Notes: generated by a model not told the origin, from the letters alone. Shown: positions 21,949 through 61,262, numbered from the stretch's first letter. The stretch is DNA of 64,000 nucleotides from Kiritimatiellia bacterium (GCA_031552845.1 JAVBMC010000028.1:72394-136393); one strand, 5' to 3'. Translations and numbers: made by a program.

Positions 21949-24465
<2,517 letters not shown>

Positions 24466-24715: not shown

Positions 24716-25696
24716 ATGAAAACGATACATTGGGTTGTAGTGTGTTTGATGAGCACGATGGCGGGTGCCAGTTACGGCGCAGACGGTAATTGGACGAACT
24801 TCGCGGCGGGACCGCATAGTTGGTTTGATGTCGATTGTTGGTCGAATGGGATTGTCGCCAATGGTTCGGGCACTACCATGGCGTTTGTCTCGAGAACGGC
24901 AGGAGATATCACGATTCTCATTGATGATGATCTGACATTGGGTGGAATAATATCCAATACAGTGATTGTTTCGCAAACGTTATTGGGTGTAGATGGACAT
25001 CGCCTTACTGTCGAGAATGAGGGGACGGCTATTTTTAATCTTGGAGCATCTCAGAATAATCCGAAGATTTGGGTGCCGTTGGTTTTGTCAAATACGGATC
25101 TCCAACTGACAAAAACTGTCTCCGGTTCTCGTAGTAATACAATATTGCTGGGAGGCGGCATCAGTGGTGTTGGAAACGTGGAGCTGTATTTGGAAACATC
25201 AGCAGCAGAACGATATTATCCCGTGCAATATATCGTGACAAATACACCGCTGACATTTACCGGAACATTGACTTTGACCGGGGTGTTGATTGGTACATTA
25301 ACAGAGAGGACCTTGCTCACAAATGCTTGGTTTGAAATGTATACGACCAATCTGTGCAGTGGCGGAACTATGATTAATGGCGCGTATGTTAAAGCGAACA
25401 CAGAGGGGGCTTTTGGTACTAAGTCCGTGAGGTTGACATCCACTGCTCGATTGGATTTGCAGAAGTCGCTTGTGTTGGAGGGCGGAAGTGATTTATATTT
25501 GATGTCGGATGCGAATGGTTCTTCCAAGGTTTATCTAGGTGTCGCTGACTCGACGAACGTGGTGCAGTGTTTGTATTTGAATGGTGTGAAGCAGTCGACG
25601 GGTATTTATAGTGCTGGGACGCATCCGCAGTATTTCGCTGAAGCCGGAGTGTTGAAGGTGAAGGGCGAGAAGCAGACTGTGCTGTTGTTGAACTAA
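24716..25696 (+). CDS. Secreted protein with autotransporter-associated beta-strand repeats
   Basis: Signal peptide MKTIHWVVVCLMSTMAGASYGADG. Repeats of the type LQLTKTVSGSRSNTILLGGGISGVGNVELY. 326 aa. Promoter-like TTGCAA-17-TATCAT upstream. Confidence 0.65.
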   Translation: MKTIHWVVVCLMSTMAGASYGADGNWTNFAAGPHSWFDVDCWSNGIVANGSGTTMAFVSRTAGDITILIDDDLTLGGIISNTVIVSQTLLGVDGHRLTVENEGTAIFNLGASQNNPKIWVPLVLSNTDLQLTKTVSGSRSNTILLGGGISGVGNVELYLETSAAERYYPVQYIVTNTPLTFTGTLTLTGVLIGTLTERTLLTNAWFEMYTTNLCSGGTMINGAYVKANTEGAFGTKSVRLTSTARLDLQKSLVLEGGSDLYLMSDANGSSKVYLGVADSTNVVQCLYLNGVKQSTGIYSAGTHPQYFAEAGVLKVKGEKQTVLLLN

Positions 25697-28700: not shown

Positions 28701-29590
28701 CCGATGCGCACAGCCCCGGCATTGCCGTGCGTTACCATTATGACGGCGCACCGACGTCCTCCGCAGTTGCGTATAAGAGCGGTGTCGGGCAGGCCGATGT
28801 CACGGCAGTTGAAAAACTTGATGCCGATGTGCGCTTGCGTCCCATGCGCTCCGGCTATGTGCTCGAGACGATTCTCAGCTGGCAGGATCTCGGCATTGAC
28901 CCTGCCGCGCTGCCTGCCCCGGGAGGGAAGCAACTCAATCTCGATTTTGAAGCCGGCATACTCCAATCTGATGCCGCAGGTTCAAAGACCCAAAGCCGTT
29001 ATTATTGGAGCGGACACATCGGCATGGTGGCGGATATTCCCACCGAAGCCGCGCCGGTGCCCAACTGGGGCAAGCTGCAGATTTGCCCACCGCCTCCGCC
29101 GGAACCGCCTAAGCAACCTCCTGTCGCTGCACCTGTTGCACGCGTCGATTCGGCTGCGCCCGTCAAAATACATTATGGATTGCCGCATCAAACCGCCGTC
29201 AAATTCGGGCAAGACCCCATACGCCTTGCCTGGGACAAGCGGGGCTTAATTCTCAAGGCTGAGCTTTTGCGGGGGGACAGCAGCGACGGGTTTGAGTTGC
29301 AGTTCACACTCGCCGAAAAACCTGCGGCGCGTATCACCCTTCAACCCGGCACAGATGGGAAGGGTGTTGGCAAGTGTTACTCCGGTGCGGCATCCCAAGG
29401 GACAGTATTGAACAGCCCCATTCGCGTACGCGCCGTGCAGGCCGGATACGTGCTGGAAACAATCCTGACATGGGACGAAATGGGCGCAACGCCCCCCGGT
29501 ACCCCTACGGTTATATTACCCTGCCACATCAAAGCCATCGGCGGGACTATAAAGACCGATGCCTTGTTGGTTTTTGAGCCTCAGCCTTAG
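25748..29590 (+). CDS. Large secreted protein (1280 aa): N-terminal FlgD-Ig-like domain, beta-propeller-like repeats, two C-terminal CBM9/DOMON-like modules
   Basis: Signal peptide. HVTLAVDSAQGVRVRNLL...GEHTVEWDGRDDAGKKLPPGDYKW (FlgD Ig-like). NHL/propeller-like YDLVAAADGTLYVSDMG. Internal duplicate modules: ...IRFAWDKRGLIIKAEVADVTP...YVLETILSWQDLGIDPAALP and ...IRLAWDKRGLILKAELLRGD...YVLETILTWDEMGATPPG. Confidence 0.8.
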   Translation: MKRLCVVFCLLAWGVGAVPGEIKFTLKEPRHVTLAVDSAQGVRVRNLLADTPYPAGEHTVEWDGRDDAGKKLPPGDYKWTGLTHAPIHALYEGAYSHGTPPWSYGTTGGWTADHSYVAAIVNAQGVMLLGSTESEWGTGGLIGCTPDGRKLWGKRWLDGKPWAGADALVTDGKRVFAGSYVQAEGPVWEINPLTGECKIVWQAKGDIPASLRNVVGAREGLEAPRFRLAGFIDDELFLTDIFGKLPYTYVFKIGTEFGAPLTFDRALNVRAWQLIKTPGGQTLAIVNRQIVALDTKTGSTKDFIATGLSNPYDLVAAADGTLYVSDMGATGMHAFNPYAQLKERALHFEGEASHQIKLFTVAGKPLSVWGRKGGQQPGLVNPNDFWRPAGLAFDPKGRLWVSEMTYQPKRVSVWEPAGAKGKQKLAAQFIGPGTYGGGGVMVNPDKPWEIMDTNYGTVFDVNLDKQTYDAVSFPFRQILARKEHAVNEGLPFDGKPTRAFPLEGRTFAVMQGGYEHGPEATWEPYSCTAAGVVGIGEYTNNVFRPLGAFGNVPFIIRMRELDARREVQWVPKAVMTAAKALPDWPRLARSVGLNPAATDTLHLEHKRGSPDWIVNPWPREIGGFKWTDANGDGSMQPEEIVFFPMGDADRVTFSDNLDVYLPQPKKHGDGTLVFKREGFNACGAPTYPDKPSRVLAGVTDVRYIAPDGSLLTMNSLRDRDGKPVWTYPADPRGARDLGAEGENLLERGTMHRLHALRGVAPLEKEQGDVMCVQSTDGMLYFLTREDGLFITTLFRPFAFAAGWDSIPQAARGMRLDEYSLQDECFNGSFQQARASGKGFEKDGYYLIGFGRSAIARVTGLDSVTHLPGGTVSLMEGVGLYAAARVEKPKGDSLKTRAIDREPLEVKYGTPPQTCIYIAGSPIRFAWDKRGLIIKAEVADVTPRLNKSGDQTMLFATGDGVDLFFKSPKYRRIRIVLAPTPQAIVADAHSPGIAVRYHYDGAPTSSAVAYKSGVGQADVTAVEKLDADVRLRPMRSGYVLETILSWQDLGIDPAALPAPGGKQLNLDFEAGILQSDAAGSKTQSRYYWSGHIGMVADIPTEAAPVPNWGKLQICPPPPPEPPKQPPVAAPVARVDSAAPVKIHYGLPHQTAVKFGQDPIRLAWDKRGLILKAELLRGDSSDGFELQFTLAEKPAARITLQPGTDGKGVGKCYSGAASQGTVLNSPIRVRAVQAGYVLETILTWDEMGATPPGTPTVILPCHIKAIGGTIKTDALLVFEPQP

Positions 29591-29920: not shown

Positions 29921-29949
29921 TTGCCTTATCGGTGGAGGTGTGTTATACT
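29921..29949 (+). promoter_or_regulatory. Sigma70-like promoter (-35 TTGCCT, 17 bp, -10 TgtTATACT) for the paralog operon
   Basis: ttgccttatcggtggaggtgtgttatact lies ~120 nt upstream of the ATG at 30071. Confidence 0.5.
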
Positions 29950-30070
29950 CCGTATGTTTTCGACAGACAGAAAAGCGAGAGGACATATAGTGCGTTTGGC
30001 GGGGGGCTGCTGGCGCGCGGAATCTGCCGAAAGCCATGGGGTAACTGTACCTTATTATAAAGGCTGTATT

Positions 30071-33000
30071 ATGAAACGAAATGTATTGTTAGTCTCCGCT
30101 TTAGCGCTTGTTTCAATGTGCCATGGTTTTACGATGCCTGTGTGGGAGGTTGGGACGATTACCGGTGATACCGACGTCATTTCCGAAGGGACAACGGTTA
30201 CGGCGTATGCAGTTGGCGGCGCGACGGAGGTGAATGGCGTGAGTTTTGTGAAGACGCCGAACAACGGTAATACGAGCGTTCAATATTGGGGGACTTATTT
30301 GACCGTCAATATCGGCATTCGGGGAACGCGCGCTTATTCGGCTACACGCGGTACCCCAAGCGGAATGAGTGAGGCTTATGTTACGATGTTGCGGGGAGAG
30401 CTGATGGCGTATACGGATGCGAACTCGACCTTTGAGGCGGAGGGAGTGATTCAGCTGCAGGGCTTGATTCCGGGCGCGCAATATATTTTGCAGGTGTGGT
30501 GTAATGATAGCTCAGGGTCGTCATCCGCCTCGCGGCAGACGATGTTGATTGCGAATATTTTTGATGCAACAGTGACGGTGCGGCAGAACATGGAGGCGAA
30601 GGCAGGAGGGGCGGGGCAGTATGCTGTTTTGCGCTTTACGGCCCCGGCGACTGCGCTGACGATCGATTTGACGGCTCCGCATGTGATCGGGGCAACGGAT
30701 GCTATTTTGATTTCCGCGATTCAGTTGCGGGAGGTTGCTGCTACGACGCCGAATGCCTATGCGTGGAGCGGTGGCGTTAATAATGTTTGGGCGGCGGATG
30801 ATTTAAACTGGGGCGGCGATGGGGCGCAGGCGCCTTGGGCAGTTGGCAGCGGCACGGAGGCGATGGCGTTGATTTATCCGCCGCAACCCACCACCACCAC
30901 GGTATTGCGGGTGGAGTCGACCATTGAAGCGGGAGTGGTGTCTTCAGTGGGCAGTACAGTTTTGCAAGGCAACGGGATGTTGAATACCACAGCTGCCGTG
31001 GTTGATAGCGATCTGCTTGCAGATGTGCGCGTGCAAACGGATGTGTTGCAAAAACATGGCGGCGGCGTGTTGTCGTTTGTCAATCCGTTAGGGCATGCAG
31101 TAGGTGTACTGGCGGTTTCAAACGGTGCGGTGCGCTTGTCGCCACTGCCGATATTTGGCGGTCTGACGACCCACTTGGATGCGTCCGATATCACGAGCAT
31201 GGATGTTGACGCGAATGGCGGCGTGGTAGCGTGGCGGTCGGTGAATGGAGCTCCGGCGCGTTATACGTTCCCGACTGCCGATGCAGCCACGTTTGTTCCG
31301 CCGGTGTATGCGGCGGATGCGTTTGGCGGACGCGGTGGCGTACGGTTTGGTTCCGAGGGGCCGTCAAAGTTGACGTCGACAGTAACAACAAATGCCCGCA
31401 GCGTTTTCTTGGTGATGAAGCTGAGTGTATTCAAGGACTATCAAGAGGTCTGGGGGATTAATGCGCAAAACAGTGATACGATCCGCGGTATACGGTTGTG
31501 GGGAGCAGGCTCGCCGAACAACATGAAGTGGTTTACTGACCGTGGCAATACAACCGGCGGGAATGGAGTATTGAACGATGAAGAGCTGTTCTGGGTAGAT
31601 GGAGTTTGGAGCGAAAATTATCCATTGGCGTCGACAACGGCAGCGCAGGTGTTGAGTTTGCAAACGAGCGGCGGCGCGGTGGGTAAGTATTTTGCGATGG
31701 GGTCGTATTTTTATGCGTCGGCTAATCGGACTGGACGGTATCTGCAAGGTGATGTGGCGGAATTGATTGTGTATGACCGGTTGTTGTCGAGTGCTGAACG
31801 GCAGGTCATTGAACAGTATTTGATTGCCAAGTGGGCGGGAGCTGAGCGGCAGAGTCTGGCGGCGAATATTTTGTCGGACTCCATGAAAGTGATTGTGGAG
31901 GCGCAGGGGACTTTATCGCTGGATGGCGTTTCGCAAGAGGTGAGCGGCTTGTCTGGAGACGGCACGGTTGCCGCTACGGCTCCGGCGGAGTTGGTCGTGA
32001 ACACAACACAGGATGCGGTGTTTAATGGGGCATTTAAAGGGGCGTTAAATGTCCGCAAGCAAGGCACGGCGGCGTTGAAATTGTTGGGCAGCAGCACTCA
32101 CAGTGGCATGTTGGATATCCGTGAGGGCAGCGTCATCGCGGGGCAGGAGTTCCCTACGGAGGGTTTGTTGTACCGCTTGGATGCGGGTCGCCCAGAAACG
32201 TTGACTGTAAATGCATCCGGGCAGGTGTCGGCATGGGCTGACTCGCAAGCCGACAGCACTGTGGTGTTCAGTCAGGCCAACGCGGCGACTCAGCCGGATT
32301 ATGTGCCAAGTGCTTTTAACGGCCAGGGTGGCGTGCGTTTTGGTGCAGAAGGGAAAGTAACCTCGTTGGAATATGACCAGAGCACTGTGAATAAGACGGT
32401 GTTTCTGGTGGTGTATACCGAGTCCACCACGGTTGAGTTTGCGGGCGTGTGGGGGAGTTGTGCCAGTGGACAAAATGTAGGATTCCGTTCAAGCGGAACT
32501 GCAACCTCAGGCGGGTATGGCGCTTCAAACCAATGGGGATTCGCAAAGGGGAGTTCCGGCGACTTTGTTCCAGATAACAATAACGGGTCTTTCCGGACAA
32601 ATGGTGTTGCGGTGGGTAATGTAGGTCCCGTTATTCCGGAGTTTGAGGTACAGGTAATCGCACTGAATCGTAAGACGGCGTCTACCTTTGCCCAGACGGC
32701 TGTCGGCGAATATTATTGGGAGGGCGAACGGCCTTACATGGGTATTATCGGCGAAGTGATTGTTTACGACCGTGACCTGACGGCGGACGAGTTTGCTCAA
32801 GTAGAGGGGCTGTTGATGTTGAAGTGGGGGGCACGAAAGGAGACTGCGGCATCGCACTTGTCGTCCTCGTCGGGGTTGGTAATGACAAAGGGTACGGTCT
32901 TGGATTTGAAGGGGAGCGATCAGGCGGTGCGCAGTTACAGCGGTGCCGGGCAAGTGGTGAATGGGCGTTTGATTGTCAGCGAACAGGTCACGGCTACGGG

Positions 33001-33277
33001 GGATGTCGGTATATTCGGATTACCGCAAACTATTCATGTCACGTCGCCTGTTGGCTTGATCAGCATATCTGGTGCCGGAGATTTGAGTACTGTGACCGTT
33101 ACTGTTGATACGGACAGTCTCAAGATCGGCCAGCGCTACCCGATTCTCTTGTGTGATGGTGAGTTTACAGGACTGCCCGTTGTGTCGGGCGTGAATCCGG
33201 ATGTCTGGATGATTCGGCGTATAGGCGATGTGGTTGAGCTGTTCTCCAAAGGCGGCATGGTATTGCAGTTGTTTTAA
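30071..33277 (+). CDS. Giant secreted protein, paralog 1: N-terminal jelly-roll-like domain, autotransporter-associated beta-strand repeats, two LamG-like (concanavalin A-like) domains, conserved C-terminal module
   Basis: The start is set at the internal Met (30071) that precedes a signal peptide MKRNVLLVSALALVSMCHG. LamG signatures VAELIVYDRLLSSAERQVIEQYLIAKW and IGEVIVYDRDLTADEFAQVEGLLMLKW. Beta-strand repeat VRKQGTAALKLLGSSTHSGMLDIREGSV. C-terminus ...ELFSKGGMVLQLF. Confidence 0.8.
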   Translation: MKRNVLLVSALALVSMCHGFTMPVWEVGTITGDTDVISEGTTVTAYAVGGATEVNGVSFVKTPNNGNTSVQYWGTYLTVNIGIRGTRAYSATRGTPSGMSEAYVTMLRGELMAYTDANSTFEAEGVIQLQGLIPGAQYILQVWCNDSSGSSSASRQTMLIANIFDATVTVRQNMEAKAGGAGQYAVLRFTAPATALTIDLTAPHVIGATDAILISAIQLREVAATTPNAYAWSGGVNNVWAADDLNWGGDGAQAPWAVGSGTEAMALIYPPQPTTTTVLRVESTIEAGVVSSVGSTVLQGNGMLNTTAAVVDSDLLADVRVQTDVLQKHGGGVLSFVNPLGHAVGVLAVSNGAVRLSPLPIFGGLTTHLDASDITSMDVDANGGVVAWRSVNGAPARYTFPTADAATFVPPVYAADAFGGRGGVRFGSEGPSKLTSTVTTNARSVFLVMKLSVFKDYQEVWGINAQNSDTIRGIRLWGAGSPNNMKWFTDRGNTTGGNGVLNDEELFWVDGVWSENYPLASTTAAQVLSLQTSGGAVGKYFAMGSYFYASANRTGRYLQGDVAELIVYDRLLSSAERQVIEQYLIAKWAGAERQSLAANILSDSMKVIVEAQGTLSLDGVSQEVSGLSGDGTVAATAPAELVVNTTQDAVFNGAFKGALNVRKQGTAALKLLGSSTHSGMLDIREGSVIAGQEFPTEGLLYRLDAGRPETLTVNASGQVSAWADSQADSTVVFSQANAATQPDYVPSAFNGQGGVRFGAEGKVTSLEYDQSTVNKTVFLVVYTESTTVEFAGVWGSCASGQNVGFRSSGTATSGGYGASNQWGFAKGSSGDFVPDNNNGSFRTNGVAVGNVGPVIPEFEVQVIALNRKTASTFAQTAVGEYYWEGERPYMGIIGEVIVYDRDLTADEFAQVEGLLMLKWGARKETAASHLSSSSGLVMTKGTVLDLKGSDQAVRSYSGAGQVVNGRLIVSEQVTATGDVGIFGLPQTIHVTSPVGLISISGAGDLSTVTVTVDTDSLKIGQRYPILLCDGEFTGLPVVSGVNPDVWMIRRIGDVVELFSKGGMVLQLF

Positions 33278-33306
33278 ACATAGGTGAGAAATATAGGAAG
33301 CAGATT

Positions 33307-36300
33307 ATGAACTGGAAAACGATAGTCGGGATTGTTGTATTGACGGCGGGAGCAGTGTTTGCGTGGCCGCAGTATTCGTGGCAGATGGGTGATGTGACTG
33401 CGGATACGGATGTAGTGACAGAGGGGGAACTCATTGCGGCGTATGCTATCCACGCGGCAACAGAGGTCAATGGCGTGCCGTTTGAAAAGGGATCTGCTCC
33501 TAAAAGTTCCATTAATTGGGGTAGTGCATTTACGGTTAATATTGGATATGTCGGCACACGTGCGCCAGATGAGAATCGCGCGAAACCTGAGGATATTTTG
33601 CCGGCCGTAGCAGAGATTTCGGCTGGGTACCGTAGTCTGTTGTCAGGAGTTATTCTGGCAAATAATCAGTGGGCGGATGAGTTTTCTCCGCAGGGCAGGA
33701 TTACAATTCGCAATTTGACTCTCGGTTCAGTTTATCTGTTGCAGGTGTGGTGTAGTGATCCGTCTGCGTATGCTGCGGAACGGCGGATGATTCTTTCGAC
33801 AGATGTGCTTCCTTCTTCTGTGGAGATGCGGGAGAATGTGACAGGAGGCAATGGGGGCGCGGGGCAGTGGGCTATTTTAAAATTTGTTGCATTGGGGCCG
33901 GAGCAATCGGTGTATTTGTCTGCTCCGGTGACAACGGCAACGGATGCAATTGTCTTGACGGCATTGCAGTTGCGCAAGATTGCTGATTCGGCACCTGGGA
34001 CCGGCACCTTTATTTGGTCCGGTGGTTATTGGGGAGTTTGGGATAAGTCGGATTTGAATTGGGGCGGCGATGGCGAAGCGATGCCATGGATCGTTGGTTC
34101 GTCATCCCAAGGGGTGAGTAACACGGCTGTGGTGATGCCGTCGTCGGCAGATGGTTATGGAATTGAGCTGAATGTGCTGGAGGATCTTGAAGCGGCGGCA
34201 TTTGTTGCATCTTCGGGTGGTCCGGTGACGATGATTGGTGAAGGGTCAATGAGTACGCCGCTTATCGCTGCCGGAACAAATTTGTTTGTGGGTACGCGTT
34301 TGAAGGCGGAGTTGCTGGCGAAGCATGACCTTGGAACACTGCAATTGATTGCTGCGCCACTGGCACATGAGATCGGAGCATTGGATGTGAATAAAGGTAC
34401 GGTGGCGTTGGTGCCGTATCCGAATGTGACAGATGGGGCTATGTTTCATTTGGATGCCTCAGCACGTGAGAGCATTGTCATGGATGCAAACGGCCGTGTG
34501 AGTAGCTGGCGTTCAATTGGCGGGGTCAGTAACGTGAGTTACGATTTTCCGCCGGATGATCCTTCGGAGTTCGTGATGCCCTTGTATAACGCATCTGAGT
34601 TTGACGGTAAGGGCGGAATTGTATTCGGCACGCAAGGCCCAAGCAAGTTGTTGGCTTCGACAAGAATGCGGGTGAAAACGGTTTTGATGGCCGTGCAGAT
34701 CAGGGAGTTTGCCGATTTTCAAGAGGTGTGGGGGGTTAATGGAACAGAGAATGCTTTTCCGCCTGCGGTAAAGTTGGGTGGCTCTGGATGGGGGGGGCGC
34801 GATAAGTGGTTTGGCGATAGCAGCAACCCGGCTATTTTTTGCGATGAAACGAACTTTTGGGTCGATGCAAGCGAGAAGCTGCCTTATCCGCCTGCATTGC
34901 TCACGGAGCCACAAGTGGTGACGTCACTGGCTCGTGCACGGGGGGAAGCGGTCAATAACAAGATCTTTGCCTTGGGGTCGGTTGATTTTCGTTCAACATA
35001 TCGGCAAAGCAGATATTTGCGCGCAAGCATTGCTGAGGTGATTGGTTTTGATCGTGATTTGAGCCGTGCAGAGCGGGCTGCATTGCAGACGTATTTGACC
35101 GCCAAGTGGAAACAGAATGCATTTTCGGTTGTGGTGACAAACTTGTTGCCCGCCAGTATTAAGGTGAATCTGGCGGAGGGTGCTTCGTTGCGGATTGATC
35201 AGGCGCATCAGAACGTTTCAACTTTGACGGGGAGCGGAAAAGTTACCGGTCAGGGAAGAGGAGCAACTTTGGTTGTCGATATGCTGCAAGACGCCAAGTT
35301 TGATGGCACGTTTGAGGGTGGTCTCAGCCTGTATAAACAGGGGAGCGGCGTATGGACGCTGGCGGATAAGGTCAATACGTTGAGCGGCCCCTTGTCGGTG
35401 CAAGCCGGTACGCTAAAGTTGGGAACTATTCCAGCGGTACCAACGGATGGATTGGTTTATTGTATAGATGCCAGCAAGCCTTCGACATTGGTCGTTGATG
35501 CGGATTCTAAAGTTTCGATCTGGCGGGATGTGCGTCCAAGTAGCACAATGGCATTTCGGCAGAGTGACCCGGCTGCTCAGCCGACTTATGATCCAGCGGC
35601 TTTCTATGGCCTAGGTGCCGTGCGGTTTGGTGCAGACGGCCAAGTTACATCATTGCTTAATGAACGGGTGACGACTAATCAAACAGTTGTAATTGTAGCA
35701 TGGACGGAAAACCGTGAGATTCCATATGCCGGTGTCTGGGGGCTCAACAATGTTAACTATGGTTTTCGTGCCGCCGGGTCAGCCTATTCGAGTGGCTCTT
35801 CAAGGCAATGGGCGTATGGGGCCGGTAATTCTGGGGATTTCCTGACGGATTCTAAGGGGGGTATTTTCCGTATCAATGGCAGTACGACTGGCGGTTTGCC
35901 ATCTGTCGCGGAGAGTATCCCGCAGGTGATTTTAATGAATCGCGTGACTCCCAGCAATTTTACTGCGACGGCGATTGGCAAATATTGGGATGCCACGCCG
36001 ACACGGCAGTATGCAGGCTGCATTGGCGAGATATTGGTGTATGACCGCCGCTTGACGGAAGATGAGTATCTTCAGTTGGAACAAACGCTGATGAAAAAAT
36101 GGAGTGCCTCCTCACGCAGTCTGATCAAGGTTCTTCCGGGTGCGATTGATATTGAAGTCGCCGCAGGTGCAACGCTCGACTTGGGAGATCGCGAACAAAC
36201 AGTCAATAGCTTTAGTGGTGGAGGTGCAGTTGTAAATGGACGCTTGTTTGTTTCTGGTACCATCACGCCGACTGGTGCAATTGAGGTCGTCAACATTCCG

Positions 36301-36552
36301 CTTGCGTTGCATATAGAATCGCCTGATGCAAAGGTGACGATTGCTGCCAACGGTGATTTGAGCACAATGACAATCACGATTGATAAAGACAAGCTAGAGC
36401 TGGGTACTCGTTATCCAATTATTATTTGCAATGGTGACCTCACCGGCTTGCCGGTGCTTGAAGGCGTCAACACGCTTGTGTGGAAAGTGCGCCGCGTGGG
36501 TGATGTGATTGAACTCTATTCGATTGCCCGTACTGTGCTGGAGCTATTCTAA
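33307..36552 (+). CDS. Giant secreted protein, paralog 2 (same architecture)
   Basis: 1081 aa. Signal peptide MNWKTIVGIVVLTAGAVFA. Same domain order as paralog 1. LamG motifs IAEVIGFDRDLSRAERAALQTYLTAKW and IGEILVYDRRLTEDEYLQLEQTLMKKW. C-terminus ...IELYSIARTVLELF. Confidence 0.8.
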   Translation: MNWKTIVGIVVLTAGAVFAWPQYSWQMGDVTADTDVVTEGELIAAYAIHAATEVNGVPFEKGSAPKSSINWGSAFTVNIGYVGTRAPDENRAKPEDILPAVAEISAGYRSLLSGVILANNQWADEFSPQGRITIRNLTLGSVYLLQVWCSDPSAYAAERRMILSTDVLPSSVEMRENVTGGNGGAGQWAILKFVALGPEQSVYLSAPVTTATDAIVLTALQLRKIADSAPGTGTFIWSGGYWGVWDKSDLNWGGDGEAMPWIVGSSSQGVSNTAVVMPSSADGYGIELNVLEDLEAAAFVASSGGPVTMIGEGSMSTPLIAAGTNLFVGTRLKAELLAKHDLGTLQLIAAPLAHEIGALDVNKGTVALVPYPNVTDGAMFHLDASARESIVMDANGRVSSWRSIGGVSNVSYDFPPDDPSEFVMPLYNASEFDGKGGIVFGTQGPSKLLASTRMRVKTVLMAVQIREFADFQEVWGVNGTENAFPPAVKLGGSGWGGRDKWFGDSSNPAIFCDETNFWVDASEKLPYPPALLTEPQVVTSLARARGEAVNNKIFALGSVDFRSTYRQSRYLRASIAEVIGFDRDLSRAERAALQTYLTAKWKQNAFSVVVTNLLPASIKVNLAEGASLRIDQAHQNVSTLTGSGKVTGQGRGATLVVDMLQDAKFDGTFEGGLSLYKQGSGVWTLADKVNTLSGPLSVQAGTLKLGTIPAVPTDGLVYCIDASKPSTLVVDADSKVSIWRDVRPSSTMAFRQSDPAAQPTYDPAAFYGLGAVRFGADGQVTSLLNERVTTNQTVVIVAWTENREIPYAGVWGLNNVNYGFRAAGSAYSSGSSRQWAYGAGNSGDFLTDSKGGIFRINGSTTGGLPSVAESIPQVILMNRVTPSNFTATAIGKYWDATPTRQYAGCIGEILVYDRRLTEDEYLQLEQTLMKKWSASSRSLIKVLPGAIDIEVAAGATLDLGDREQTVNSFSGGGAVVNGRLFVSGTITPTGAIEVVNIPLALHIESPDAKVTIAANGDLSTMTITIDKDKLELGTRYPIIICNGDLTGLPVLEGVNTLVWKVRRVGDVIELYSIARTVLELF

Positions 36553-36576
36553 TTGTAACTGAGAAGGACTAAAAAG

Positions 36577-39500
36577 ATGAACTGGAAAATGCTTGCGGGC
36601 GTAGCTTTGCTGAGTGCTGGTGTCGCTTGGGGACAGATTGGGTCTGTCTGGCAGTCTGGAGATATCACGGGTGATTCGGATGTGGTGACGGAGGGAGAAC
36701 TGCTCGCGGCGTATGCGGTGAGTGCCGCGACAGAGGTGAATGGTGTCGCATTTGCAAAACCGACTGCTTATAATACGAATGCATGTGCATGGGGTACTAT
36801 GTTCACAATGGACATGGGGTACTATGGAACTCGTAGTCTTAATACAGCTCGTGGAACGCCAACAAATCCGGAGTTGAGCAACGCGTACATTACTCTATTA
36901 AAAGGCATGACATATGCTAGTAATAGTCAAAGTGATTTGCTGTCGCCCTTGGGGCGCGTGACCATTCAAAACTTAAAACCGGGGGCTGTTTATTTGGTGC
37001 AGATTTGGAGCAGCGATTCTTCGGAGTGGTCCACGACCAATCGTCTGACAACTTTCACAGCGTCATCAACCATTTCACCCTCGGTTTCGGTTACGGTGCG
37101 GCATAATTTAACTGCAGCAAAGGGTGGCACGGGACAGTACGTTGTGCTACGGTTCACGGCGACAGCCGAACAGCATATGATTGAAATGTCAGCGCCGGAT
37201 TTTGCAAATTCGGTTGAGGCCATTGCGCTGAGTGCGATTCAGCTGCGGAAGTTGGCGGATTCGACAGAGGGGGTATCTGCTTGGCAGCAAGAATTGAATG
37301 AAGCTGAGTGGGATGTGACAGACCGCAACTGGGGTGGAGATGGCGAGACGGTGCTATGGTCGGCTGAGGCCGGAGCAGGCCGCGCAGGCGTTATGGCGGT
37401 GTCGGGAACAACGGATGGACTGATAACGGTCAACTCTGATGTGACAGCAGGTACGATTTATGCCTCAGGCGGATTCCAAACACTGCAGGGGACAGGCAGT
37501 TTGAAGGTGTCGCAGATTAATTCGGCAGGTGTGTTGTCGATTCAGGTGCCGTTGATGGGCGATTCGCTTTTGAAAGATGATGCGGGCTCATTGTTCTTCT
37601 TGAAGTCGGACGTTCCACACCAAACCAAGCGGATTACGGTGGATAATGGTTCTGTGATTTTAGGAGGCTTGCCGAGCTTCTGGGAGAATAGCGTTTTCCG
37701 TTTGGACGCTTCCATGCCGGATAGTATTGTACGAGATGCCAATGGCGCGATCAGCAGCTGGAAGTCAGTTGGAGACGTGACATTAAGTTATGATTTTACG
37801 GAGGCGATGGATGCGGACTTTGTCAAGCCGGTGTATGATGCCAATGCATTTGGCGGTAAGGGTGGTGTTGTATTCGGCGCTAACGGCCCCTCTAAATTAT
37901 TGTCGTCGCTGCCGGTGACGGTGCGGACTGTTTTTGCGGTGATGCACTTTGATACATTTGCCGATTACTCAGAAGTCTGGGGCATTAATGGTTTGGACAA
38001 CAATACAGTGCGCGGTATTCGTTTGGCAGGGAGCACTACCGCTACGAGCGCGAAGTGGTATCAAGATGCATCGAACACTGGCAACTTCAATGAGACTGAT
38101 TGCTTCTGGGTGGATGGGGTCGCCTCTACGACTTATCCGGAGGCATCCTTGACCGAGCTACAGGTGGTGACAGCGACGAGCCGGGTGAGAAATGATTCGG
38201 TAGATAAGCTTTTTGGGTTGGGGTCATACAGTTTTTTGCCGGCTAATCGTACAGGGCGCTATCTGCAGGGACGTATTGCTGAGGTTGTCGGATTCAGCCG
38301 TGACTTAACCCGCTCGGAGCGGATTGCTGTCGAAGAGTATTTGAGGACTAAGTGGCAGCAGCCGGTGACACGGCACAACCTGTTGCCCATTGACACAAAA
38401 ATCACGCTTGAGGAGAAAGGCGTGCTGCAGCTGAGTAACGTTCCGCAAGAGCTGGCTCAGCTCAGCGGTAACGGTTCGGTGGTTGCCTCGGAGCCGGTGA
38501 ATGCATTGATTGTCAATGCCGTTGAGGATCATGCGTATGCAGGCACAATTGCCGCCAATGTGCGTGTTGAGAAAAAAGGCCCCGCCTTGTGGCAACTGTC
38601 GGGCGATAAAACATTTCACGGCATACTTGCCATTCAAGAGGGAACGGTCATGGCGGGTATCGACTGTTCTTTGCCTGAGGATGGGTTAGCGTATCGAATT
38701 GATGCTTCGAGGAGTAGTACGTTGACGCATGATGAAGAAGGCAAAGTCTCTGCATGGCGGGATGCGCGTCCCGATAGTTCGGTGGTCTTTCGGCAAGAAA
38801 ATGCGGAAGCGCAACCCATTTATACTCCTACGGCATTTGGCGGTATTGGTGGAGTACGGTTTGGAACGGATGGGCGGGTCACTAGTTTGATCAACTCACA
38901 AAGTGCAAGTATCAAAACCGTCTTCATTGTTGCATGGACAGAGAAGGCCAATATTGAATTTGCGGGCATCTGGGGTTCTGCAGGGGCTAACTTGGGGCTG
39001 CGCGCTGCTGGTTTAGTGATCCACAACAGCAAATCAACCCAGTGGGCGTTTAACCTGTTTAACAGTGCTGACTTCATTGAAGGCCCAACGAAAGGATTAT
39101 TTCGTTCCAACGGAGTGACGCTGACAAGCACGCCCACAATTCCGCTCGGACAACCGCAGTTGATTATGCTGAAGCGTGATGCAACGGCAACGTTCCCCGG
39201 GACTGCTATCGGCAAATATTGGGATGCTACGCCAACGCGGCAATATACGGGCTATATTGGCGAGATACTCGCTTACGATAGAGACTTCACGGAGGAAGAG
39301 TACGAGGCTGTTGAACAGGCGCTCATGATGAAATGGGGTTTGGTTGAGCAAAAGCTGACGCAATGTTTTGCACCGGAGGCCAGTCTTGAGATCGCAACCG
39401 GTGGCACCTTGCATCTCGCCGGTACTGAACAAAAGGTGACTAACTATAAGGGTGCCGGAGCCATCATCAATGGTGAGTTAATTGTGACAGGAACAGTCAC

Positions 39501-39786
39501 GCCGACCGGTGCGGTGGAGATCTTTAACATTCCGGCTGAACTTGCCGTGATATCCCCGAATGGCAATCTAAAGATTTCTGCGGATGGCGATTTGAGCACG
39601 ATGATTATTACGATTGATAAAGATAAACTGGTGCTGGGCGCCCGCTATTCAATTATCACGTGTAATGGTGAGTTGACTGGCCTGCCCGTGGTGTTCGGTG
39701 TAAATCCTGAGGTTTGGATGGTCAGGCGTGTGGGTGATGCGATTGAATTATATTCGATCGCACCCACGGTGTTAGAGTTATTCTAA
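36577..39786 (+). CDS. Giant secreted protein, paralog 3 (same architecture)
   Basis: 1069 aa. Signal peptide MNWKMLAGVALLSAGVAWG. LamG motifs IAEVVGFSRDLTRSERIAVEEYLRTKW and IGEILAYDRDFTEEEYEAVEQALMMKW. C-terminus ...IELYSIAPTVLELF. Confidence 0.8.
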   Translation: MNWKMLAGVALLSAGVAWGQIGSVWQSGDITGDSDVVTEGELLAAYAVSAATEVNGVAFAKPTAYNTNACAWGTMFTMDMGYYGTRSLNTARGTPTNPELSNAYITLLKGMTYASNSQSDLLSPLGRVTIQNLKPGAVYLVQIWSSDSSEWSTTNRLTTFTASSTISPSVSVTVRHNLTAAKGGTGQYVVLRFTATAEQHMIEMSAPDFANSVEAIALSAIQLRKLADSTEGVSAWQQELNEAEWDVTDRNWGGDGETVLWSAEAGAGRAGVMAVSGTTDGLITVNSDVTAGTIYASGGFQTLQGTGSLKVSQINSAGVLSIQVPLMGDSLLKDDAGSLFFLKSDVPHQTKRITVDNGSVILGGLPSFWENSVFRLDASMPDSIVRDANGAISSWKSVGDVTLSYDFTEAMDADFVKPVYDANAFGGKGGVVFGANGPSKLLSSLPVTVRTVFAVMHFDTFADYSEVWGINGLDNNTVRGIRLAGSTTATSAKWYQDASNTGNFNETDCFWVDGVASTTYPEASLTELQVVTATSRVRNDSVDKLFGLGSYSFLPANRTGRYLQGRIAEVVGFSRDLTRSERIAVEEYLRTKWQQPVTRHNLLPIDTKITLEEKGVLQLSNVPQELAQLSGNGSVVASEPVNALIVNAVEDHAYAGTIAANVRVEKKGPALWQLSGDKTFHGILAIQEGTVMAGIDCSLPEDGLAYRIDASRSSTLTHDEEGKVSAWRDARPDSSVVFRQENAEAQPIYTPTAFGGIGGVRFGTDGRVTSLINSQSASIKTVFIVAWTEKANIEFAGIWGSAGANLGLRAAGLVIHNSKSTQWAFNLFNSADFIEGPTKGLFRSNGVTLTSTPTIPLGQPQLIMLKRDATATFPGTAIGKYWDATPTRQYTGYIGEILAYDRDFTEEEYEAVEQALMMKWGLVEQKLTQCFAPEASLEIATGGTLHLAGTEQKVTNYKGAGAIINGELIVTGTVTPTGAVEIFNIPAELAVISPNGNLKISADGDLSTMIITIDKDKLVLGARYSIITCNGELTGLPVVFGVNPEVWMVRRVGDAIELYSIAPTVLELF

Positions 39787-39804
39787 TGAATTGATGGTGG
39801 TTAA

Positions 39805-39840
39805 GCCCGCAGGTATTCGCAAAATACCTGCGGGCTCTTG
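39805..39840 (+). terminator. Rho-independent terminator after the paralog operon
   Basis: aagcccgcaggtattcgcaaaatacctgcgggctcttgtt: a 12-bp perfect stem gcccgcaggtat/atacctgcgggc plus a T-rich tail. Confidence 0.75.
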
Positions 39841-39855
39841 TTAGACGGGGATGGA

Positions 39856-42195
39856 ATGATGAGGTTTGCGTTGATGGCGGTGATATTGTGCGGGGGACTG
39901 CAATGTTCGGCGATGGAGAAGCTGCCGGAGATTGTGACGCCGTCATTGACTGTTCGTGCACTGACGCCGACGCAGATTCGCATTGAGACTGCCGATGGAA
40001 AGAAGATTGTAGACTACAACGGCATCCGCCTCAAAGGAACATTATCGGCAAAGACTGTTGATGGCGGGAGTGTCCGGCGTACGGTCAATGCTGATGGATT
40101 GCCGACGCTGGAAGTTCGTTATGCGGTCAGCGTTGATGGCGATGAGAAGACCAAGCCGGTTGTCGTTGGACGCTTTACGCCGAATAAAGATAGTGTCCGC
40201 GTAACGTATGATATTACCGGTGTTCCGACCGATAAGAAGTTTACGCTGGGCAACTCCATGCTGCAACGCAGTTATGTCTCCGGCACAGAGCTTCTCGTGG
40301 AACAGCGCAGTATGCTGACTCATTGGGAACGTCATGAGGCGGGCGGGATTCCTTATGAAGTCAACGATGGCACCGTGGTTCCTTACCGTTCACCTTCCGG
40401 GGCATTTGCTGTTGTCGTTGATGGGCACCCGAATCTCAAGTGGCGTGATGGACATCAAGAACATATCTCAATCAACCGTGTGGAGCCGGGACACTTTAAA
40501 TCAGAGTTCGCTGTGGTGCTTGCTGATATTGAAAAAGTGGGCGCGCCTGCAATCGGCGGCATCTGGCGGAACTGTCCCGTGGGATTAACGTTGCGGACGG
40601 ACCGCGCGTTTCATTGCTGGCAGTCGGCCAAAGAGCCTCTCTGCTTCACTGCCGACATCAACAGCTCACTTGCAGTTACACAGCGCGTAGAGCGTGCGTA
40701 TTGGGTGCGCGATTTTGCGGGCAGGGTGATTGCTCAAGACACGCGACAGATCAATCTTCCTCCATTGACTCTCTACTCGGAACCCTTGAAGGTGCAGACG
40801 AGCGATACGCGCGGCATTTACTTTGTGGAGGTTTCGTTGAAGGATCTGCGCGGGCACGAGCTTGCGTTTGCACGAATCAATCTGACCGTGCTGCCGCCGC
40901 ACACGTTTTCATCTACGCCTCAAGACAGTATCTTTGGCCTCGCCGCCTATTGGCCTTTGCCGTCGGAGGAAGTTGTGCAGGACTTGATGGATCGCATGGG
41001 CGTGCGTTGGTTGCGCGAAGGCGACACCCGCAAGCAGCACCCGCCGCGTATTGCCAACCATCACAGCAACACATCATTCGGTAAAGAGTGGAATCCGACT
41101 GAGCGCGATGCTTGGATCCGCAAACAGTTTGAGATCTGTGTTGAGAATAAAAACCCCTGCTGGGAGTTCGGCAACGAGATCAACATGTCCACTTTTGGCA
41201 TTGCGTTGGAAGGCGGCGGGATCGGCAAAGCGTTGCTCGCACCACAATATATCGATTGGATTAATGCTGTGCGCCGCGTACAAAAAGAGAAGCCGGAGTG
41301 GCAGCAGATTCAGCTACTGAGTTTCGGTGTGGCGGGAATGGATACAGTGTTCGTGCGCAAGCTGATTGATGCCGGAACTTTCGCGCAGCTTGACGGACTC
41401 TGCCTGCATCCGGGGCGCGGTAACTTCGCGCCTGATTATCCGCTGGCACAGCCGTGGCTGCCGCATGATCTCAAGCGTGATAAGGGGAGCTTTTGGAACT
41501 ATTACGGCGCCGTGCGGACAGCGCATGACATCTGCAGCAGTAACGGTAGCAAGCCCTTATGGCTCACAGAGGTTTATGCGCCGACTAACCCCAACAGCCA
41601 TTGGGAAGACACGCCCCGCCATGCGGCGGAGAATGTGTTGTTGAGCTTTATCTTGGCAAAGGTTGAGAGTGTTAAGGCCGTGATGTACTATCAACTCTTT
41701 GACTCCGTTTGGTATGACCGCCTCGGCGTCAATCACAAAGAGCGCGAGTATTTCTTTGGGCTGATCCACCGCGACTATAGTCTCAAGCCCGCACTGCTCG
41801 CCTACTGCGCGGCGGCAGAACATTTGGAGAGTGCAGTGTTTAAAGGCTGGGTGAAGTTTGATGGCACGGAAGTCCGTGGTGTAGTCTTTGATACGCCGCG
41901 TGGCGCATTGACGATTTTGTGGAACCGTGCCGATGGCTATATCCTCACAGAGAAAGTTAAACCCTTCGCAACACCGGAACCTTGGGTAGACTTGTGGAAA
42001 ACTAAAACAGCCGTTACACTGCCGACATCTGCCTCATCCGTACGCATTATCAATGCCATCGGTCAACACTCCACTGTCGCATCCAACAATAAGACTGTCA
42101 CGCTCAAAATAGATGGCGCACCGACGATGATCTACGGACTCGACATCGCGCAGTTCAAACTATTGCCAAACGGTGCAGTTGCGGTGAAACATTAA
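39856..42195 (+). CDS. Secreted glycoside hydrolase, clan GH-A-like (TIM barrel) with an N-terminal beta-sandwich region
   Basis: Signal peptide MMRFALMAVILCGGLQCSA. Candidate catalytic acid/base in ...CWEFGNEINMSTFG and nucleophile in ...KPLWLTEVYAPTNP (the NE(P)...TE pattern of GH-A). Family not assignable by eye. Confidence 0.55.
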   Translation: MMRFALMAVILCGGLQCSAMEKLPEIVTPSLTVRALTPTQIRIETADGKKIVDYNGIRLKGTLSAKTVDGGSVRRTVNADGLPTLEVRYAVSVDGDEKTKPVVVGRFTPNKDSVRVTYDITGVPTDKKFTLGNSMLQRSYVSGTELLVEQRSMLTHWERHEAGGIPYEVNDGTVVPYRSPSGAFAVVVDGHPNLKWRDGHQEHISINRVEPGHFKSEFAVVLADIEKVGAPAIGGIWRNCPVGLTLRTDRAFHCWQSAKEPLCFTADINSSLAVTQRVERAYWVRDFAGRVIAQDTRQINLPPLTLYSEPLKVQTSDTRGIYFVEVSLKDLRGHELAFARINLTVLPPHTFSSTPQDSIFGLAAYWPLPSEEVVQDLMDRMGVRWLREGDTRKQHPPRIANHHSNTSFGKEWNPTERDAWIRKQFEICVENKNPCWEFGNEINMSTFGIALEGGGIGKALLAPQYIDWINAVRRVQKEKPEWQQIQLLSFGVAGMDTVFVRKLIDAGTFAQLDGLCLHPGRGNFAPDYPLAQPWLPHDLKRDKGSFWNYYGAVRTAHDICSSNGSKPLWLTEVYAPTNPNSHWEDTPRHAAENVLLSFILAKVESVKAVMYYQLFDSVWYDRLGVNHKEREYFFGLIHRDYSLKPALLAYCAAAEHLESAVFKGWVKFDGTEVRGVVFDTPRGALTILWNRADGYILTEKVKPFATPEPWVDLWKTKTAVTLPTSASSVRIINAIGQHSTVASNNKTVTLKIDGAPTMIYGLDIAQFKLLPNGAVAVKH

Positions 42196-59777: not shown

Positions 59778-59827
59778 AACGAATGTTCCCGTGCTGTACA
59801 GTCTAACATATTCCACCCGCCACGCCA

Positions 59828-59860
59828 AACAAAAACGCCGCCTCCTGACCGGAAGCGGCG
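59828..59860 (-). terminator. Rho-independent terminator after PEP-CTERM gene A
   Basis: The minus strand reads cgccgcttccggtcaggaggcggcgtttttg. Confidence 0.65.
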
Positions 59861-59879
59861 TATAAATTCAAACAGCCGG

Positions 59880-60536: not shown

Positions 60537-60547
60537 CTCTCTTTCGC

Positions 60548-61234: not shown

Positions 61235-61262
61235 GAACACCACTTTTAATTGCATAAGAGGG

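Follow-up and report, generated by a model that had tools for sequence, protein, structure and literature searches.

Among described systems, the type Va autotransporter passengers, above all the C-terminal autochaperone/junction regions of IcsA, pertactin, Ag43, and Ssp, come close; such passengers carry a Sec signal peptide, PATR-type repeats, and a right-handed β-helix. Substrates of the PEP-CTERM/exosortase system (TIGR02595; the T5SS/PEP-CTERM-associated repeat class) are barrel-less β-helices of environmental Gram-negative bacteria in which a short C-terminal sorting element takes the place of a barrel, and it was the PEP-CTERM motif that led to the exosortase. Type IX cargo comprises Sec-exported surface proteins of widely varying sizes, many of them active on glycans, which share a conserved C-terminal domain (CTD; Por_Secre_tail). 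The Kiritimatiellota and related bacteria rank among the major anaerobic degraders of complex and sulfated glycans, both in guts and in sediments. Here we analyze three tandem genes in a 64,000-nucleotide stretch of a Kiritimatiellia genome (the window) whose products resemble each of these systems in part.

Layout and domains of the three paralogs

The three genes are separated by 29 and 24 bp, and their products (Table 1) align co-linearly over the full length in a three-way alignment (A1). Paralogs 2 and 3 are 41% and 44% identical to paralog 1 and 45 to 46% identical to each other, consistent with the three co-linear ~1070-aa paralogs, 25 to 30 bp apart and 35 to 50% identical, described by an earlier sequence-only reading of this DNA. 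The open reading frame (ORF) of paralog 1 is already open from a TTG at 29921, and in its NCBI-derived copy, P0003, the start lies 27 codons before MKRNV. The common ~230-aa N-terminal region, the WSGG-type motif, W(S/Q)GG...W...D(L/R)NWGGDG, and the invariant C-terminal block ending in ELYSIA(R/P)TVLELF (ELFSKGGMVLQLF in paralog 1), all pointed out in that reading, could be seen directly in the alignment, as could two regions per paralog of the form LDAS...W.D...AEVI.(Y/F)DR.L(S/T)..E...KW.

Judged by eye, the N-termini of the paralogs (MKRNVLLVSALALVSMCHG, MNWKTIVGIVVLTAGAVFA, and MNWKMLAGVALLSAGVAWG) resemble Sec signal peptides, as do those of the full-length family members. The N-terminal domain of paralog 2 is common to paralogs 1 and 3 and to the distant homologs P0016 and P0045. 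A single PATR/TIGR02601 repeat (autotransporter-associated β-strand repeat) was detected at about aa 660 to 706; it scored 29.6 bits (cut-off, 19.85) in paralog 2 and stayed under the threshold in paralogs 1 and 3. The two LamG-like domains proposed earlier found support at the level of fold only. None of the three paralogs had a Pfam or NCBIfam match to LamG, even at E ≤ 5, but two stretches of ~220 aa in the AlphaFold model (pLDDT, 70 to 90 across both) matched ConA-like lectin modules in Foldseek (E, 2e-3 to 1e-2; probability, 1.0), and homolog P0045 showed a faint Laminin_G_3 match; the tentative LamG/ConA-like assignment is based on this model and this match. The first of the two regions in paralog 2 closes with the helix RAERAALQTYLTAKW.

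The fold similarity and the gene neighbors of distant homologs make glycan binding a candidate role for the jelly-roll domains. Full-length homologs elsewhere adjoin GH95, F5/8-type-C, SASA esterase, and FAD_oxidored genes. In the window, domain-library searches of the 1280-aa flanking protein, previously taken to contain a CBM, gave only FlgD_ig and NHL matches; the 785-aa flank, earlier called GH-A, had no match. Neither flank has a detectable CAZyme or CBM family, and the wider surroundings of the trio are housekeeping genes. The lineage-specific glycan-capture locus envisaged earlier is weakly supported: the lectin-like jelly-rolls and the neighborhoods of the homologs speak for it, the flanks and the surroundings do not.

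Table 1. Features of the locus, with positions counted from the first letter of the window
Feature	Position	Strand	Basis
Exported β-helix-like protein, 326 aa, same gene cluster as the trio, ends GVLKVKGEKQTVLLLN	24716..25696	+	
Paralog 1, 1068 aa from MKRNV	30071..33277	+	ORF and translation
C-terminal β-helix (autochaperone-like) module, paralog 1	32897..33244	+	HMM from A3, E 9e-26
Heptad GMVLQLF, paralog 1 (Gly at -7 retained)	33254..33274	+	Translation, family alignment
Paralog 2, 1081 aa, identical to P0001	33307..36552	+	ORF and translation
N-terminal ~215-aa domain, paralog 2 (~230-aa region in trio)	33364..34011	+	Alignment; poor AlphaFold confidence
First ConA/LamG-like jelly-roll region, paralog 2, about aa 375-602	34429..35112	+	Fold level only; boundaries approximate
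PATR/TIGR02601 β-strand repeat, paralog 2, aa 674-706	35326..35424	+	Pfam/NCBIfam
Second ConA/LamG-like jelly-roll region, paralog 2, about aa 712-933	35440..36105	+	Boundaries approximate
C-terminal β-helix (autochaperone-like) module, paralog 2	36172..36519	+	AlphaFold model, fold matches, module HMM
Heptad RTVLELF, paralog 2 (Gly -7 replaced by R)	36529..36549	+	Translation, family alignment
Paralog 3, 1069 aa, identical to P0002	36577..39786	+	ORF and translation
C-terminal β-helix (autochaperone-like) module, paralog 3	39406..39753	+	HMM from A3, E 5.6e-28
Heptad PTVLELF, paralog 3 (P at -7)	39763..39783	+	Translation, family alignment

The C-terminal module and the known export classes

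An exhaustive search of 1.84 billion representatives with a profile of the C-terminal 125 aa returned 77 matches, 74 true and 3 false. The three paralogs (E, 8e-57 to 1e-54) grouped with 71 other clusters, and in 74 of 74 clusters the match was the exact C-terminus, in proteins of 57 to 6433 aa with unrelated upstream architectures. The block therefore extends beyond a private duplication. Neither the block nor its terminal heptad corresponds to a named Pfam or NCBIfam domain, and literature searches gave no name for the heptad. The tail-bearing loci come from Kiritimatiellia, "Lentisphaeraceae," and "Verrucomicrobia" metagenome-assembled genomes (MAGs), and family members are annotated at source as [quoted passage not shown]; the GyrB encoded in the window shares 69.6% identity with its counterpart in a Kiritimatiellia MAG.

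A module HMM, built from alignment A3 without the tail columns, recognized the three paralogs at E values of 9e-26 to 4e-28. The structure prediction that had been proposed as a check yielded an all-β model with a β-helix fold (pLDDT, 91.3). Among mainstream members of the family, though not in the window proteins, there are weak matches to positions 2 to 84 of 432 in TIGR01414, which represent the pre-barrel passenger end (best score, 18.0 bits; cut-off, 16), and matches to EprS at positions ~495 to 602. As modeled, the block is the end-piece of an autotransporter-style β-helix and no new fold. The sequence-only reading had also offered a carbohydrate-binding β-helix domain, with no part in sorting or folding, as an explanation of the block. 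The glycan-degradation neighborhoods of the homologs would agree with this, but the passenger ends of autotransporters, which play no part in binding, match equally well or better, 7jvi is matched by any short β-helix, conservation falls on glycines and core hydrophobics rather than on a surface patch, and the block is always terminal behind unrelated architectures. We consider this explanation very unlikely.

Several established classes were rejected for the trio. A Sec-type signal peptide (by eye) and a β-helical passenger with PATR and an autochaperone-like end are present, as in a type Va autotransporter, but the α-helical linker and the 12-stranded β-barrel are absent: no Pfam or NCBIfam barrel match was found in the paralogs or the family modules, the TIGR01414 alignment stops at ~84 of 432, and the sequence runs on for only 9 to 10 residues after the last modeled strand. 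TIGR02595 matched none of the three paralogs or 38 family modules, and the tails (...TVLELF and ...MVLQLF) have no PEP motif, transmembrane helix, or basic cluster; seven residues are too short to span a membrane, so the sequence itself excludes intramembrane cleavage of the exosortase type. On the other hand, the product of window positions 59880-60533(-), used as a positive control, scored 24.2 bits on TIGR02595 (cut-off, 16), and that of 60548-61255(-) carries the same tail, ...PEPAT..LL..G..LLALRRRV. Both suppositions made earlier, that other proteins of this genome use PEP-CTERM and that the conserved C-terminal tail of the trio is distinct from it, were thus borne out. Type IX cargo was set aside on the absence of a Por_Secre_tail/CTD match in Pfam or NCBIfam and on the predicted β-helix fold, and type I (RTX-type) substrates on the Sec-type N-termini and the lack of RTX or HemolysinCabind matches. 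An outer-membrane β-barrel protein with a BAM β-signal was rejected as well, there being no barrel and an aromatic last residue in only 7 of 74 clusters. The trio qualifies for a family of Kiritimatiellota-type β-helix proteins that we define here as "module + GT-φ-φ-x-φ-R," with an autochaperone-like segment at the exact C-terminus followed by the heptad without extension.

The terminal heptad and its possible readings

The family heptad, G-T-φ-φ-x-φ-(R/K/L/F/M)-COOH, stands at the very end of the chain and takes the form x-(T/M)-V-L-x-L-(F/N) in this organism. Across 74 clusters, position -7 is G in 70 (3.46 bits) and position -6 is T in 54 (2.76 bits), followed by I/L/V at -4 (2.16 bits), L/V/I/F at -2 (1.86 bits), and R/K/L at -1 (1.78 bits); positions -8 and -9, just before the heptad, reach only 0.4 to 0.6 bits. 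The window paralogs fit at -6, -5, -4, -2, and -1. The strict motif occurred 19 times in 300 ORFs (135,559 positions), and 16 of these occurrences were exactly C-terminal, against 0.04 expected. In both AlphaFold models (module-only and full-length), the last ~9 residues lie outside any strand, with the chain ending 7 to 10 residues past the last rung; the pLDDT of the tail is ~75 in the former and drops from 55 to 37 in the latter. AlphaFold may merely fail to place the tail.

All module-bearing ORFs carry the heptad tail, which was also found after sequence not matched by the module HMM: at L001 6802-9333 (...SKHTGVTIIFR), adjoining P0004 (...GGTTLIFR), at L021 15139-18516 (...GNGGTLMTLQ), and at L030/L031 (...SAPGLILLLR). 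Likewise, the 326-aa protein encoded in the same cluster as the trio, with no family match in domain-library searches, ends in the organism-specific x-T-V-L-x-L-F/N type (...KQTVLLLN) after a different C-terminal context. Such contexts may be highly divergent forms of the same last two strands and not independent domains.

We give about an even chance to the explanation that the trio are Sec-exported, barrel-less autotransporter-like paralogs whose heptad is read for export or attachment. Their predicted architecture comprises a signal peptide, the ~230-aa N-terminal domain, a right-handed β-helix of PATR-type strands whose stretches hold the two ConA/LamG-like jelly-roll (lectin-type) domains, and a final ~115-aa β-helix segment, which corresponds in structure to the autochaperone/junction region that closes the passenger of type Va autotransporters just ahead of the linker and the β-barrel. 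This module would nucleate and cap a β-helix stalk displaying the lectin-type domains, and a lineage-specific factor in the periplasm or outer membrane would recognize the free heptad at the C-terminus and either export the protein or fix it to the cell surface. Besides the barrel and PEP-CTERM, such passengers would then have the heptad as a third option. We regard an unrecognized sorting or anchoring role as the best reading of the last seven residues. Only tentatively do we propose that Kiritimatiellota and Lentisphaerota-like bacteria have an undescribed route of export or surface attachment with the heptad as its sorting signal, one that would serve autotransporter-type β-helix passengers with neither barrel nor PEP-CTERM. 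The dedicated reader may be a translocator that acts in trans or a secretion-gate domain that binds C-termini.

Counting against a tag, no gene family recurs beside these genes in 33 loci, and paralogs 2 and 3 have R and P in place of Gly -7, the best-conserved residue. Most clusters (43 of 74) end in R or K, which is atypical for PDZ-type or outer membrane protein β-signal recognition, so no known reader fits well. A β-helix end-cap, too, would be expected to show a Gly-Thr turn and then a short hydrophobic strand. The main rival, possible though not the likelier account in our judgment, is that the heptad is the last structural element of the β-helix, a cap strand unread in trans, which would shield the open solenoid end and prevent edge-to-edge aggregation, with release by a general route such as a type II system. 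It would suit a module that is itself a β-helix end, the strand-like look of φ-φ-x-φ after the turn, the pLDDT of ~75 retained by the last 10 residues in the module-only model, the constant company of module and tail, and the absence of a recurrent partner gene family beside the tail-bearing genes in 33 loci. However, neither AlphaFold model builds the tail as a strand, the tail is conserved above the residues preceding it and also occurs behind sequence missed by the module HMM, and the Gly-to-stop spacing never varies among proteins only ~25 to 30% identical, whereas nearby loops have indels.

The heptad might instead be a β-signal-like strand (G-x-x-φ-x-φ) engaging an Omp85-family protein (BamA/TamA-like) or a separate barrel by β-augmentation, implying a "split" type V system with passenger and translocator on separate chains. 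The outer-membrane β-signal has the pattern Po-x-G-x-x-Hy-x-Hy, which the spacing of G(-7), φ(-4), and φ(-2) resembles; the module corresponds to the pre-barrel segment of autotransporters, and Phe is last in all three window paralogs. This is unlikely, given the prevalence of a basic final residue in the family over F or Y (7 of 74), the inability of a single strand of 6 to 7 residues to span a membrane, and the absence of a recurrent barrel gene in the 33 loci.

Significance and comparison with known systems

The trio points to a whole class of autotransporter-like passengers lacking a translocator barrel and ending in a position-locked seven-residue motif absent from domain libraries. If the heptad is a sorting tag, it would make the surface proteome of the lineage searchable by regular expression and offer a handle on the machinery through phylogenetic profiling or peptide pull-down, as in the case of PEP-CTERM and exosortase; if it marks a sorting route, that route would have to handle dozens of giant surface proteins per genome, with lengths reaching 6433 aa. 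Were it a cap strand only, the "new module" would be a familiar autochaperone-type β-helix end, which is still a useful result.

Unlike type Va passengers, the trio has no linker or barrel after its last rung but a conserved heptad at the position where the linker would start, and two jelly-rolls are inserted in its stalk. These resemble the trans-sialidase lectin domain, the Streptococcus sanguinis PilC lectin module, and tetanus toxin Hc-N in Foldseek; unlike LamG/ConA-like modules, they evade Pfam in the window proteins. The trio differs from the PEP-CTERM class in lacking its tripartite tail, and from type IX cargo in that the CTD is an Ig-like β-sandwich of ~70 to 100 aa, whereas the trio ends in a β-helix and a free, lineage-specific heptad. 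The type IX lineage is Bacteroidota, whereas that of the tail family is PVC.

Three tandem paralogs and their homologs

The ORFs, their translations and an alignment of the three paralogs bear out every feature that the sequence-only reading had listed for this tandem array. The genes lie 29 and 24 bp apart and their products align co-linearly from end to end, paralog 1 being 41% and 44% identical to paralogs 2 and 3, which are 45-46% identical to each other. Each product has a signal-peptide-like N-terminus followed by a common N-terminal region of ~230 aa, a shared W(S/Q)GG...W...D(L/R)NWGGDG motif, two regions of the LDAS...W.D...AEVI.(Y/F)DR.L(S/T)..E...KW type, and a near-invariant C-terminal block ending in ELYSIA(R/P)TVLELF, with the variant ELFSKGGMVLQLF in paralog 1. 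In its database version (P0003, 1095 aa), paralog 1 begins 27 codons 5' of MKRNVLLVSALALVSMCHG; since the signal-peptide-like sequence starts at 30071, the annotation probably places the start too far 5'. The GC skew on the coding strand of 30001-40000 is strongly positive (0.18-0.27 per 2 kb), exceeding that of adjacent plus-strand genes, and probably reflects a Gly/Val/Thr-rich composition.

Coordinates of the paralogs, of tail-bearing proteins and of other features (window positions unless a genome locus, L, is named)
Feature	Position	Strand	Size	Remark
Paralog 1	29921/30071-33277	+	1068 aa from MKRNV at 30071	ORF and translation
Paralog 2	33307-36552	+	1081 aa	ORF and translation
Paralog 3	36577-39786	+	1069 aa	ORF and translation
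Tail, no or partial module match	24716-25696	+	326 aa	...GVLKVKGEKQTVLLLN
Tail, no or partial module match	L001 6802-9333			...SKHTGVTIIFR
Tail, no or partial module match	L021 15139-18516			...GNGGTLMTLQ
Tail, no or partial module match	L030/L031		1569 aa	...SAPGLILLLR
Tail, no or partial module match	L023			...LPNGTLFLMQ
P0004 and following protein	L001 2490-9333		1440 and 831 aa	metagenome contig
Flanking protein	25748-29590	+	1280 aa	
Flanking protein	39838-42195	+	785 aa	exported
gyrB	21976-24465			
gyrB	L002 8815-11493			
gyrB	L022 12815-15493			
PEP-CTERM protein	59880-60533	-	~217 aa	
PEP-CTERM protein	60548-61255	-	~235 aa	
PEP-CTERM pair and GT4 gene	58509-61255	-		
Restriction-modification segment	2066-8618	-		

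When full-length paralog 2 was used in a word-indexed search, only the three paralogs, all on one 193-kb NCBI contig, and one metagenome protein (P0004, 26% identity) came up; the tail of P0004 (...RYTVVSVSGDVTGAF...W.LYRVGG.WYLLGVGGTTLIFR) is recognisably of the same kind. Two such searches with C-terminal alignments returned fragments only. This approach was too insensitive for the family; what succeeded was an exhaustive HMMER search (E <= 1e-3) of 1.84 billion cluster representatives, using a profile that covered the final 125 aa. It gave 77 matches, 3 of which were false positives on low-complexity sequence, and all 74 true matches were located at the very C-terminus of proteins of 57 to 6433 aa. 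The block, singled out earlier as a possible sorting, anchoring or binding module, is therefore no private duplication, because 74 clusters share it; the paralogs carry a diverged form of a block that is common to a broad family. Two homologs, P0016 (1086 aa) and P0045 (1024 aa), also carry the N-terminal domain and are therefore full-length homologs of the paralogs. A genome scan with the three-paralog alignment gave no match; a broader alignment (A4) was too diverse for a peptide pattern, and a narrower one (A5) worked. MAGs labelled Kiritimatiellia, 'Lentisphaeraceae' and 'Verrucomicrobia bacterium' contributed the module-bearing genome loci, with several loci in each genome, and relatives are annotated at source as 'autotransporter-associated beta strand repeat-containing protein [Kiritimatiellota]'.

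Predicted folds and their known counterparts

A single PATR/TIGR02601 repeat (~aa 660-706) was found upstream of the block, passing the cut-off in paralog 2 only (29.6 bits vs. 19.85). Neither LamG, the N-terminal domain nor the tail had a Pfam or NCBIfam match in the paralogs, and a PDB sequence search with the full-length paralog profile found no significant match. A full-length AlphaFold model from nine sequences (pLDDT 68.6 overall) was poor at aa 1-270 and mostly at 70-90 over aa 290-1072. With it, Foldseek found an Akkermansia glycan-active enzyme (8pvs, E 9e-8), the IgA1-protease beta-helix (E 2e-4) and many ConA-like jelly-rolls (E 2e-3 to 1e-2, probability 1.0), among them a trans-sialidase lectin domain, the S. 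sanguinis PilC lectin module, the GH54 N-terminal domain and tetanus toxin Hc-N. In the homolog P0045, Laminin_G_3 gave a faint match. The two LamG domains claimed from the sequence are thus supported at the level of the predicted fold (~aa 375-602 and ~712-933) and not at that of sequence, where Pfam at E <= 5 gave nothing meaningful for them or for the N-terminal domain.

The structure prediction suggested for the C-terminal block gave a confident all-beta model of the ~115-aa module (38 sequences, pLDDT 91.3, pTM 0.77). It matched the C-terminal passenger fragment of IcsA/VirG (5ke1, score 9.5, 122 residues, 2.8 A), a beta-helix domain from a capybara gut metagenome (7jvi, 9.5), pertactin (9.4), Ag43 (8.9), Ssp (8.8) and the IcsA autochaperone region (3ml3, 8.3, 106 residues). 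The module of the window proteins had no match at the sequence level. Mainstream family members weakly match TIGR01414, the autotransporter barrel domain (best 18.0 bits vs. cut-off 16), with the matches confined to profile positions 2-84 of 432, i.e., the passenger end before linker and barrel; a further match of these members covers EprS positions ~495-602 of 988. The module therefore corresponds to the autochaperone/junction segment found in the passengers of classical autotransporters. Its fold is already known, yet, as had been supposed, no named domain covers it: the family, its terminal heptad and the barrel-less architecture with the heptad are unnamed in Pfam (2025 copy) and NCBIfam 20.0, and a full-text literature search found no description of this tail or of barrel-less passengers in Kiritimatiellota.

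Genomic neighbourhood

Indirect support for a glycan-related role comes from the neighbours of P0016/P0089 and P0045, which include FAD_oxidored proteins, an MFS transporter, an F5/8-type-C protein, a GH95 and a SASA/esterase protein. A carbohydrate-binding function of the module itself would suit such neighbours, and is less likely, since passenger ends of autotransporters match the module equally well or better.

The 1280-aa flanking protein has an N-terminal FlgD_ig and an NHL repeat as its sole domain matches; it had no significant PDB sequence match, and its C-terminal part gave nothing meaningful in Pfam at E <= 5. A module that includes PIR(F/L)AWDKRGLI(I/L)KAE occurs once on each side of its proline-rich linker (PPPPPEPPKQPP), which is an internal duplication. 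The 785-aa protein had no match in Pfam (E <= 5), NCBIfam or PDB sequences, and its WEFGNEIN and LWLTEVY motifs, which underlie the GH-A reading made from the sequence, look similar to those that hold the acid/base and the nucleophile in clan GH-A hydrolases.

Housekeeping genes surround the cluster (gyrB, mutL, nrdDG, aroKB, asd, era, pfk, lysC and hom). Both in the window and in a Kiritimatiellia MAG, tail-bearing beta-helix genes are found only a few kb from gyrB; this proximity may be a conserved neighbourhood or coincidence. The window GyrB is 69.6% identical to that of the MAG over 810 aa, and this identity, together with the titles of the relatives, was the basis for the taxonomic assignment. 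All-against-all clustering of 33 loci revealed no recurring partner gene; only beta-helix proteins, antisense shadow ORFs and gyrB recur, and therefore no partner can be named.

Use of PEP-CTERM in the same genome, also noted from the sequence, was confirmed within the window by a TIGR02595 match of the 59880-60533 product (24.2 bits, cut-off 16), which shares the ending ...PEPAT..LL..G..LLALRRRV with its neighbour. The two small proteins are tandem, mutually similar and adjoin a GT4 glycosyltransferase, and they are a second, separate surface-protein system. Elsewhere, a segment with a G+C of 0.42-0.52 (0.55-0.6 in the rest) encodes a Methylase_S specificity subunit of type I restriction-modification, HsdM (N6_Mtase) and a RhuM-family gene, and is possibly a mobile defence islet.

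A heptad locked to the C-terminus

The module is followed by seven residues that end the protein. None of the 74 C-termini extends past this heptad or is shortened, and the loops just before it contain indels, unlike the heptad itself.

Conservation of the terminal heptad among 74 C-termini
Position	Residues	Bits
-9, -8	variable (before heptad)	0.4-0.6
-7	G in 70/74	3.46
-6	T in 54/74	2.76
-5	L/V/M	1.5
-4	I/L/V	2.16
-3	variable	0.9
-2	L/V/I/F	1.86
-1	R 32, L 13, K 11, F 6, M 5	1.78

The strict motif GT[LVMI][ILVM].[LIVF][RKLMFQN] was counted in 300 ORFs (>= 200 aa; 135,559 positions in all) drawn from the window plus the first 20 loci. It occurred 19 times, 16 of them exactly C-terminal vs. 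0.04 expected; since the module had served to select these loci, the count measures position-locking and not independent enrichment. Every ORF matching a module HMM built without the tail columns bears the tail, the one apparent exception carrying a variant, PGTKLLLR.

The tail also closes ORFs that the module HMM matches partly or not at all. On the L001 contig, the gene that starts 26 bp beyond P0004 (...GGTTLIFR) encodes 831 aa; its product gave no Pfam match and has the same tail flavour on unrelated C-terminal sequence. Similarly, the 326-aa protein two genes 5' of the paralogs, exported and beta-helix-like with nothing meaningful in Pfam at E <= 5 and no family match, ends in ...GEKQTVLLLN, the paralogs' flavour in a different C-terminal context. 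Such flavours are shared within an organism: x-(T/M)-V-L-x-L-(F/N) in four window proteins, T-(L/I)-I-F-R in two of the L001 organism, and a terminal M in two of L015, a locus of OW818680.1 (6.1 Mb), which has at least two tail proteins. The near-invariant Gly is retained in paralog 1 and is R or P in paralogs 2 and 3.

Known secretion endings were rejected for the paralogs. Pfam and NCBIfam showed no barrel, PEP-CTERM (TIGR02595) or T9SS CTD in them or in the family modules, the predicted beta-helix also disfavouring the last; a T1SS signal is contradicted by Sec-type N-termini and the lack of an RTX match, and membership among OMP beta-signals by the missing barrel and a terminal R or K in 43/74. 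A beta-signal-like pairing of the heptad with Omp85 or a separate barrel, which would supply the barrel in trans, is accordingly less likely.

On the main rival reading, the heptad caps the helix as a strand and nothing recognises it in trans, as its place directly after a beta-helix segment would allow. In the module model, the final ~9 residues (SIARTVLELF) lie outside strands (last ten-residue block, mean pLDDT 75), and in the full-length model the terminal residues drop from pLDDT 55 to 37 with no strand. We favour recognition in trans because neither model places a strand in the tail, because its distance to the carboxyl end is absolutely fixed across ~25%-identical proteins, because it is more conserved than the residues before it, and because it follows other C-terminal contexts in organism-specific flavours. 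A lineage-specific factor would read the heptad from the free C-terminus and then export or attach the protein.

The paralogs are exported, barrel-less, autotransporter-like beta-helix proteins with two predicted lectin-type domains, ending in an autochaperone-like segment and a position-locked heptad. An autochaperone-type nucleation role is established for the BrkA, IcsA and pertactin passengers, and by analogy this segment may nucleate and cap the stalk. In a classical autotransporter the junction segment is followed by a linker, whereas in the paralogs the heptad starts at that point, which gives autotransporter-type passengers a third way to end, in addition to a barrel or PEP-CTERM.
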